Below are positions 18,607 to 18,991 of a stretch of DNA of 64,000 nucleotides, one piece after another. The position numbers and the translations under genes are program-made. This DNA is from Escherichia phage ECP52, in sequence record ON782582.1; one strand, 5' to 3'. Under the pieces are notes generated by a model. That model was not told the origin of the DNA and searched no databases. It saw nothing but the letters and a program-made list of their open reading frames with translations. Within the stretch, counting starts at the first letter, position 1, and every line of letters begins with the position of its first letter.

Positions 18607-18687
18607 ATACAAGTAATATAAATCTATACTTATGAAAAACAGATGATTCTGGACCTTTAGAATTCCCTAAAAAATTTTCACAAAACT

Positions 18688-18717
18688 GTTTACAAGACTG
18701 TTCTTCCATGGTACTAT
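18688..18717 (+). promoter_or_regulatory. T4-type early promoter (cassette copy 1)
   Basis: GTTTAC, 18 nt, TGGTACTAT; TTTTCACAAAA upstream. Confidence 0.55.
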
Positions 18718-18754
18718 ACAACTATCAACTACTGATACAGATTTGGAGAATAAA
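18713..18754 (+). repeat. conserved leader ACTATACAACTATCAACTACTGATACAGA plus RBS (copy 1 of 4)
   Basis: Near-identical at 45181 and 48591, diverged at 37201. Confidence 0.7.
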
Positions 18755-18991
18755 ATGAAAATTGTTATGGGATGCTTAGCAGTTTGTTTAGTTGCATTAG
18801 CAGCAGTTCCATTTGTTAGTGTTGAAAATGATACTCAACCTGTGATTGAATCTAGCACCGTTATTCACACTAATGGTAAAATATCAGTTAAAATTGATGA
18901 TAATCTTCATGTGAATACAAATGGGTCTTTAGGTGTGCAAATGGGTAATATCTGCATAAGCACTACTGGAGTAATTACTACTTGCATTTGA
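18755..18991 (+). CDS. small secreted protein with signal peptide (78 aa)
   Basis: N-terminal hydrophobic signal MKIVMGCLAVCLVALAAVPFVSVE. Confidence 0.4.
   Translation: MKIVMGCLAVCLVALAAVPFVSVENDTQPVIESSTVIHTNGKISVKIDDNLHVNTNGSLGVQMGNICISTTGVITTCI

Follow-up and report, generated by a model that had tools for sequence, protein, structure and literature searches.

T4 early promoters (Pe) are reportedly a well-described class, RegB/S1 target sites are said to have been identified in T4 early mRNAs, and motA is reportedly a classical RegB substrate. Alignments of T4 early promoters show 'additional regions of consensus' (Hinton 2010, PMC2988021), and one of these promoters, Pe26.4, has been used as an early promoter with its start quoted at map unit 27,044 (PMC6024815). 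Strong RegB/S1 cleavage sites follow the 11-nt consensus GG*AGRAYARAA (Uzan & Miller 2010, PMC3014915). A PeSL (promoter-early stem-loop) has been defined as the combination of an early promoter, a terminator stem-loop beside it, an A/T-rich tract, and the SD and ATG of the ORF that follows (PMC2839356). PeSLs cluster beside indels (Arbiol et al. 2010, PMC2839356); PeSL mini-circles are known from RB49/phi1, and in RB49 the crossovers were located to the segment from the -10 to the ATG (PMC2839356). In the T4/PST pair, PeSLs were described with the ndd.4/.5 exchange as an example, and degraded '1/2' PeSLs were also counted (Comeau et al. 2014, PMC4122927).

We analysed a window of 64,000 nt from Escherichia phage ECP52 (ON782582.1). 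A first-pass annotation had seen in it an early promoter with a shared leader and RBS in four copies, and had likened these to mobile PeSL cassettes. It is very probable that they are four sigma-70-dependent T4-like Pe promoters, each with its initial transcribed region, 5'UTR and RBS, and that they belong to one mosaic PeSL-type family. The earlier reading was essentially right, and overstated in presenting them as a discrete mobile four-copy unit. Round the first copy, identity to Escherichia phage vB_EcoM_G4507 is 99.8%; this region matches 518 phage records, nearly all of them from Tequatrovirus, and judged by these matches the window is that of a Tequatrovirus. The window is collinear with the T4 minus strand, starting at map unit ~47.5 kb and passing through 0 to ~148.7 kb. 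The T4 counterparts of copies 1 to 4 are the promoter between gene 43 and imm.1 (Pe26.4), the one between motB and cef, the one after denB and before ndd.6, and the motA promoter. On this mapping each of the four sites is the orthologue of a T4 early promoter, that of imm.1, cef, ndd.6 and motA, respectively. The T4 GenBank and RefSeq records consulted carry no promoter annotations; by mapping to T4, the predicted start of copy 1 is the equivalent of 27,044. The promoters, a fifth relative and two terminator stem-loops are laid out as follows.

18584-18601, plus strand: intrinsic-terminator stem-loop AGGGACCTCCGGGTCCCT with T-run, after gene 43, the 'SL' of copy 1 (terminator scan; same position in T4)

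18663-18757, plus strand: copy 1, orthologue of the Pe26.4/imm.1 promoter (promoter pattern and T4 mapping); UP tract 18663-18687, -35 GTTTAC 18688-18693, TGn and -10 TACTAT 18712-18717, predicted start A 18724, 31-nt leader 18724-18754, SD/RegB site GGAGAATAAAA 18745-18755, ATG 18755-18757

37151-37251, plus strand: copy 2, diverged, between motB and cef; UP tract 37151-37175, -35 ATATAC 37176-37181, TGn and TACTAT 37200-37205, predicted start 37212, 37-nt leader, SD GGAGAATAAAA 37239-37249, ATG 37249-37251

45131-45225, plus strand: copy 3, orthologue of the ndd.6 promoter, directly after the denB stop codon, with no upstream stem-loop; -35 45156-45161, -10 45180-45185, predicted start 45192, 31-nt leader, SD GGAGAATAAAA 45213-45223, ATG 45223-45225

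45435-45495, plus strand: fifth relative, an ndd.4-type promoter with a short leader; GTTTAC, imm.1-type spacer aagactgttcctc, TATTAT, then a leader end in which TACCCTATCAACTAC is followed at once by GGAGGAACAGAAAATG

48513-48534, plus strand: terminator stem-loop AGGGAGAGCCTCGGCTCTCCCT with T-run, after motA.1, the 'SL' of copy 4

48541-48639, plus strand: copy 4, the motA early promoter; -35 48566-48571, -10 48590-48595, predicted start 48602, 35-nt leader, SD GGAGATTAGAA 48625-48635, ATG 48637-48639, motA 48637-49272

Every copy has an A/T-rich UP tract, a GTTTAC -35 (ATATAC at 37176) and a TGn-extended TACTAT -10. TGG-TACTAT, which is a TGn-extended -10 of the TAnnnT type, occurs in all four. 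The GTTTAC motifs at 18688, 45156 and 48566 lie 18 nt from TACTAT, i.e. there are 17 nt between hexamers when TTTACA is taken as the sigma-70 hexamer; the ATATAC of the 37176 copy has two mismatches and is a poor -35. The 25 nt upstream of each copy are at least 72% A+T, with TTTCACAAAAC, and form a UP-like tract. As in PeSLs, a strong early promoter is followed at all copies by the SD and start codon of the next ORF. Promoter activity in ECP52 is predicted from these motifs, as are the start sites, in each copy the A of CTATCAAC, 7 nt after the -10. Host RNA polymerase would recognise the UP tract, the GTTTAC -35 and the TGn-extended TACTAT -10, and transcription would begin at the A of CT-A-TCAAC; by orthology with T4 Pe26.4, this would occur early and without phage protein synthesis.

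The 29-nt leader ACTATACAACTATCAACTACTGATACAGA matches exactly at 18713-18741, 45181-45209 and 48591-48619 of the 64-kb window and with three mismatches at 37201-37229. This bears out the near-identical sequences annotated at 18681-18757, 45149-45225 and 48559-48620, and the diverged copy at 37170-37251. The four matches compare with an expectation of 0.00, and none of 100 dinucleotide-preserving shuffles had any. The RBS/start motif TTGGAGAATAAAATG is exact at 18743, 37237 and 45211; the motA copy has ACGGAGATTAGAAAATG in its place. With up to two mismatches TTGGAGAATAAAATG matches four times against 0.71 expected, and one of 100 shuffles reached four; this short motif alone is not clearly in excess over chance. 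One might attribute the similarity to chance or composition, as the genome is A/T-rich and the RBS motif is barely above the shuffles. But the 29-mer refutes this, the positions of the copies relative to -35/-10 and ATG are identical, and the idea has practically no probability left.

The similarity is graded. Identity among the four copies is 88-100% in the leader and 56-80% in the UP tract, and in the first 14 nt of the -35/-10 spacer it is 29-43%, the random level for the composition; in three copies a 24-nt stretch of leader is 100% identical beside these random-level spacers. Since unrelated spacers make the similarity non-contiguous, the four-copy cassette dissolves as a discrete unit, and a graded mosaic family takes its place, with the four copies at one end of it. 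The repeat search of the window found weaker relatives also at 4404, 24892 and 45417; in the fifth, shorter relative (45435-45495) TACCCTATCAACTAC is followed at once by GGAGG, and other weak relatives lie at 24910 and 35508. Using uniform criteria we counted 12 early-type promoters in the window and 32 candidates in T4. In the window 4 of the 12 carry the full leader and one the core only; in T4 there are 6 with the full leader, 4 with the core, 2 core-like and 20 without leader. The leader thus does not follow most early promoters, in keeping with the annotation's view that it is more than a part of the promoter consensus. Further copies in T4 precede e.8 (exact) and nrdC.10 (a 3-nt deletion variant), and shorter versions are found at nrdC.8, denV, trna.4 and ndd.4. 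The T4 spacer aagactgttcttcc is common to the imm.1, ndd.4, nrdC.8 and e.8 promoters, the leaders of which differ; frd.3 and nrdC.10 have the UP tract of motA as well; and two IMG/VR Tequatrovirus genomes have an e.8-type spacer in the promoter of the imm.1 locus. A 91-nt query matched 643 phage records, with 6-10 places per Tequatrovirus record among the matches listed.

Several near-identical copies with different downstream genes might be recent insertions of an autonomous or passively mobilised transposon- or MITE-like promoter cassette, and the PeSL mini-circles of RB49/phi1 (PMC2839356) point in the same direction. Yet T4 has a copy at each of the four positions, and this, together with the 6-10 places per Tequatrovirus record among the matches listed, argues that the copies are not recently mobile. 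Moreover, unrelated spacers interrupt the similarity, the four modules lack flanking terminal inverted repeats and target-site duplications, and the cargo ORFs vary between relatives whereas the promoters do not. Recent insertion is thus very improbable. An upstream stem-loop accompanies only the 18681 and 48559 copies (2 of 4); the terminator scan found none before the copies at 37176 and 45156, which the stop codons of motB and denB directly precede. The likeness to PeSLs therefore stands for promoter, leader, RBS and polymorphic cargo, and for the stem-loop in two copies only.

The leaders themselves vary among relatives, and they do so by lineage. At the imm.1 locus, eight genomes have four leader variants (full with A, full with G, a TAC deletion and a CTG deletion), and the ndd.6 locus has further ones. 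In T4 the leaders at imm.1, ndd.6 and nrdC.10 have G (GATACGGA) and those at motA, e.8 and cef have A. The window has A at all four, so its imm.1 and ndd.6 leaders differ from T4 in parallel (G-to-A). The TAC deletion (ACTACT to ACT) is unusable as evidence of conversion because ACT-ACT slippage can recur independently. The T4-type leader survives in RB69 at the e.8 promoter alone, where a T-to-C change breaks the palindrome. RB69 promoters have AGTCCTATCAAAACAA or AGACCTATCAA in common, and the motA and imm.1 promoters of RB69 carry leaders that recur in that phage, AGACCTATCAAAACAA or AGTCCTATCAAA. Another leader, CATACCAAACAAA, is common to phages whose MotA is 67-69% identical. At three IMG/VR Tequatrovirus loci where MotA is 99-100% identical, a wholly different promoter and leader stand directly before motA. 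The sole part common to all leader types is the core CTATCAA round +1. An exact scan of IMG/VR for the 16-mer TATCAACTACTGATAC gave mostly chance matches in unrelated contigs. The 'extended RBS' pattern (CTGATA..AGA..TTGGAGAATAAAATG) was found in only five Tequatrovirus stretches and hence does not support an element shared across genera; phages with 67-69% MotA identity have a similar CTGATAGAA..TTGGAGAATAAAATG that lies outside the pattern. Altogether, the distribution of leaders fits lineage-specific homogenisation with free replacement and, as far as sequence comparison can tell, argues against an indispensable sequence-specific element. To judge from such natural replacements, the specific leader is dispensable and replaceable.

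What the leader does in RNA can be approached by prediction. The 5'UTRs of copies 1 to 4 fold no better than shuffled sequences (z = 0.30, -0.03, 0.01 and 1.08), and the sole local hairpin in the leader is a small AUCA/UGAU (-0.6 kcal/mol). Two candidates were discarded at this stage: a 5'-terminal hairpin or palindrome TATCA-ACTAC-TGATA, with a fold of -0.6 kcal/mol, z ~0 and natural variants that break the palindrome, and a known structured RNA family, Rfam covariance models giving no match at gathering score in the whole window. The predicted mean unpaired probability of the SD in promoter-proximal RNA is 0.81, 0.88 and 0.90 in three copies and 0.39 for motA. The GGAGAATAAAA of three copies fits GGAGRAYARAA at 11/11 positions and the motA GGAGATTAGAA at 10/11. 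As the 31-37-nt leader is G-poor and unstructured, the SD would stay single-stranded. Since the SD GGAGAAUAAAA fits the 11-nt RegB/S1 consensus, the messages would be translated immediately, after which a RegB cut at GG^AG would inactivate them, and RegB probably cleaves the ECP52 early messages, as this fit suggests.

The 18-24-nt leader (AUCAACUACUGAUACAGA) might instead be a dedicated cis-regulatory element under purifying selection, which co-regulates an immediate-early subset (motA, imm.1, ndd.6, e.8, cef). As RNA it could be a translation enhancer, an RNase or protein target or a 5'-end stabiliser; as DNA it could be an operator, the palindrome TATCA-N5-TGATA at +1 to +15. ACAGAUUUGG presumably resembles an RNase E-type A/U-rich site, which would speak for such an element. 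The leader is 100% identical in three copies with random-level spacers adjacent, and the same leader is kept at e.8 in Mosigvirus. Finally, the mechanism of early-promoter shut-off is stated as unknown (PMC2988021; PMC3014915), which makes a missing operator conceivable and so lends this alternative some further weight. Yet we find no stable structure (z ~0, hairpin -0.6 kcal/mol) and no Rfam match. Orthologous leaders in the genus tolerate the TAC and CTG deletions and A/G and C/T changes, and the palindrome is destroyed by the CTG deletion and by the Mosigvirus T-to-C change. Phages with identical MotA, and RB69 too, have an altogether different leader at motA, and only 6 of 32 T4 early promoters carry the leader. 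We therefore consider a dedicated element unlikely, with a minor share of the probability. Rather less likely still is the narrower proposition that the leader tail CUACUGAUACAGA(UUU) marks a co-regulated subset, comprising the motA, imm.1-locus, ndd.6-locus, e.8, cef-locus and nrdC.10 messages, bound by a putative factor as RNA or at the +1 to +15 DNA palindrome. If it were true, candidate roles of the factor would be to shut off T4 early promoters rapidly or to restrict in time the translation of MotA, the activator of the middle mode. We found no evidence for a dedicated regulatory RNA or operator.

If the sites are ordinary Pe promoters of a mosaic family, as we favour, their history would be one of block exchange. 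The family blocks, namely UP/-35, extended -10/start core, leader tail and SD/ATGAAA, would be inherited, exchanged and homogenised by phage homologous and short-homology recombination; the conserved blocks would then serve as junctions for gain, loss and swap of small early ORFs. Recombination is probably the homogenising process. The homologous blocks are ~30-50 nt long, a marginal length for classical T4 homologous recombination, and T4 exchanges at 2-10-bp homologies are documented (PMC9391042). Alternatively, random-level spacers beside a 100% identical 24-nt leader could reflect purifying selection rather than conversion. The annotated suggestion that the copies could drive recombination between distant loci is not supported: exchange was seen only for promoter segments, between paralogous promoters, and we found no rearrangement joining distant loci. 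Deletions joining distant copies would remove essential genes.

At all four loci a small ORF was gained or lost at the 3' edge of the module. The downstream cargo had been described as different each time, and comparison of flanks with close relatives confirms that it is polymorphic at 4 of 4 loci. The cargo ORFs of the first three copies and their neighbours are as follows.

18755-18991, plus strand: 78-aa cargo ORF (phrog_4189), function unknown, with a hydrophobic N-terminus, before imm.1 (19002-19382)

37249-37518, plus strand: 89-aa cargo ORF (phrog_3720), intact in the window

45223-45249, plus strand: 8-codon ORF MKIAEIEL, remnant of an 87-aa ORF (phrog_2390)

45246-45332, plus strand: ndd.6-like mini-ORF

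45329-45427, plus strand: ndd.5-like mini-ORF

The 78-aa ORF is absent from T4, has the 8-nt repeat ATGAAAAT at both junctions and occurs in 318 phage records; the locus itself is matched by 518. Inside the 89-aa ORF T4 has a 201-bp deletion, so that the T4 promoter runs into cef. The 'tiny peptides' annotated after the 45149 copy are there in the form of MKIAEIEL, which is however all that is left of an 87-aa ORF (phrog_2390), still intact in other Tequatroviruses (L132, L134); to judge from this comparison, it arose by deletion between two AAATGAAA repeats in that ORF. In front of motA, three relatives (L135, L132 and L133) carry a 75-aa ORF (phrog_10955) with its own promoter, placed between the motA-type promoter and motA. 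Their two leaders have CTATCAAATAAATGAACTGAAAC in common, which is the PeSL topology, and a matching insert (75-aa ORF and second promoter) is present in 162 phage records.

Two side observations concern the same loci. In L132 (IMGVR_UViG_2974787500_000001), a deletion that fuses terminator stem and spacer (GGCTCTCC|AAAGCATACTG) has removed T-run, UP tract and -35 from the motA-type promoter before the 75-aa ORF (9581-9610), and this promoter is a naturally 'degraded' PeSL. T4 and the window (18755-19382) have the imm.1-imm block behind gene 43; in RB69 (19011-19689 of L129) the block is found between 61.4 and sp, and the UP/-35 in front of it is similar to the one of the T4 sp promoter. Given these different positions, a promoter-plus-cargo block occupies different loci in sister genera.

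A further set of observations concerns the spacers. Complementarity between the -35/-10 spacer and the leader or SD of the same promoter is found in many T-even early promoters. Perfect inverted repeats of 6 bp or more occur in 14 of 28 T4 promoters and in 11.5% of cross-pairs, and for 10 of 28 (~1.4 expected) the SD is predicted to be fully paired in read-through RNA and open in promoter-proximal RNA. The same switch is predicted at 4 of 12 promoters of the window: 18688 (spacer 18694-18711, SD 18745-18752), 30300 (30306-30323, SD approx. 30343-30350), 35508 (35514-35531, SD approx. 35550-35557) and 45435 (45441-45458, SD 45480-45487). Such complementarity is also seen at the T4 regB, denV, nrdC.8, ndd.4, 30.8 and e.8 promoters and at RB69 regB. 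Among the four focal copies SD occlusion is predicted at 18688 only; in the 45435 relative the spacer pairs with the SD in the modelled read-through RNA. Copy 2 has a 13-bp perfect inverted repeat (37182-37194 and 37212-37224, ATCAGTAGTTGAT / ATCAACTACTGAT) which brackets the -10, is kept in T4 and has the shared leader itself as its downstream arm; this repeat of the 37176 promoter leaves the SD uncovered. In the folding model, spacer-SD pairing would restrict translation to transcripts begun at the proximal early promoter. Promoter-embedded RBS-hiding hairpins are known in T4 e, soc, 49 and I-TevI (PMC3014915). They too hide the SD in read-through transcripts, the known cases being late promoters; a limited literature search found no description of spacer-SD pairing at early promoters.

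Other short repeats in the window deserve mention. The starts of gene 44 and rIIA (13667-13712 and 41138-41183) are 83% identical over 46 nt, including AATGAGGAAATTATGATTA, and the likeness spans the translation initiation regions and the first ~10 codons. Both genes are RegA-repressed in T4, and the likeness may thus reflect a common operator or the duplication of a short gene start. A family of near-identical terminator hairpins with a UUCG loop, GGGCTTCGGCCC, recurs through the early region, at 5271-5298, 8914-8944, 13618-13654, 15788-15815, 38989-39019, 44264-44291 and 44492-44528. They form a second class of short dispersed repeats and could be recombination points too.

Because these findings fit the published PeSL and early-promoter picture, they are known biology of low novelty, and they open no new question. 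We have not found a new element, but known T4 early promoters in the known PeSL/early-promoter family, with an RBS that matches the known RegB/S1 target. The gain is in annotation, with exact predicted calls of promoters, start sites and RegB sites for four early transcription units and several 'odd' mini-ORFs explained as deletion remnants. The PeSL model also gains countable cases in the best-sampled phage genus (the 78-aa ORF in 318 of ~518 records, the 75-aa ORF with promoter in 162), in which the junctions are the conserved start core (CTATCAA), GGAG and ATGAAA.

How do these sites compare with the systems described before? Like T4 early promoters, they have a UP tract, a GTTTAC -35, a TGn and TAnnnT -10 at 17-nt spacing, and they lie upstream of early genes; there is no essential difference, the full 29-nt leader being a feature of a sub-family and not of the general consensus. 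Like the RegB/S1 targets of T4 early mRNAs, they have an intergenic GGAG as SD, then an A-rich tail, and this is predicted to be single-stranded; that consensus extends over no more than the module's final 11 nt and is silent on the upstream leader. They differ from PeSLs in having a stem-loop in 2 of 4 copies and in being positionally stable within the genus. They share with PeSLs the A/T-rich tract, early promoter, SD and start codon, repeated through early regions and placed beside ORF indels and replacements. The T4/PST exchange of ndd.4/.5 adjoins the 45149 and 45435 copies, and the crossover segment published for PeSLs, from the -10 to the ATG, is the very segment that the copies have in common.
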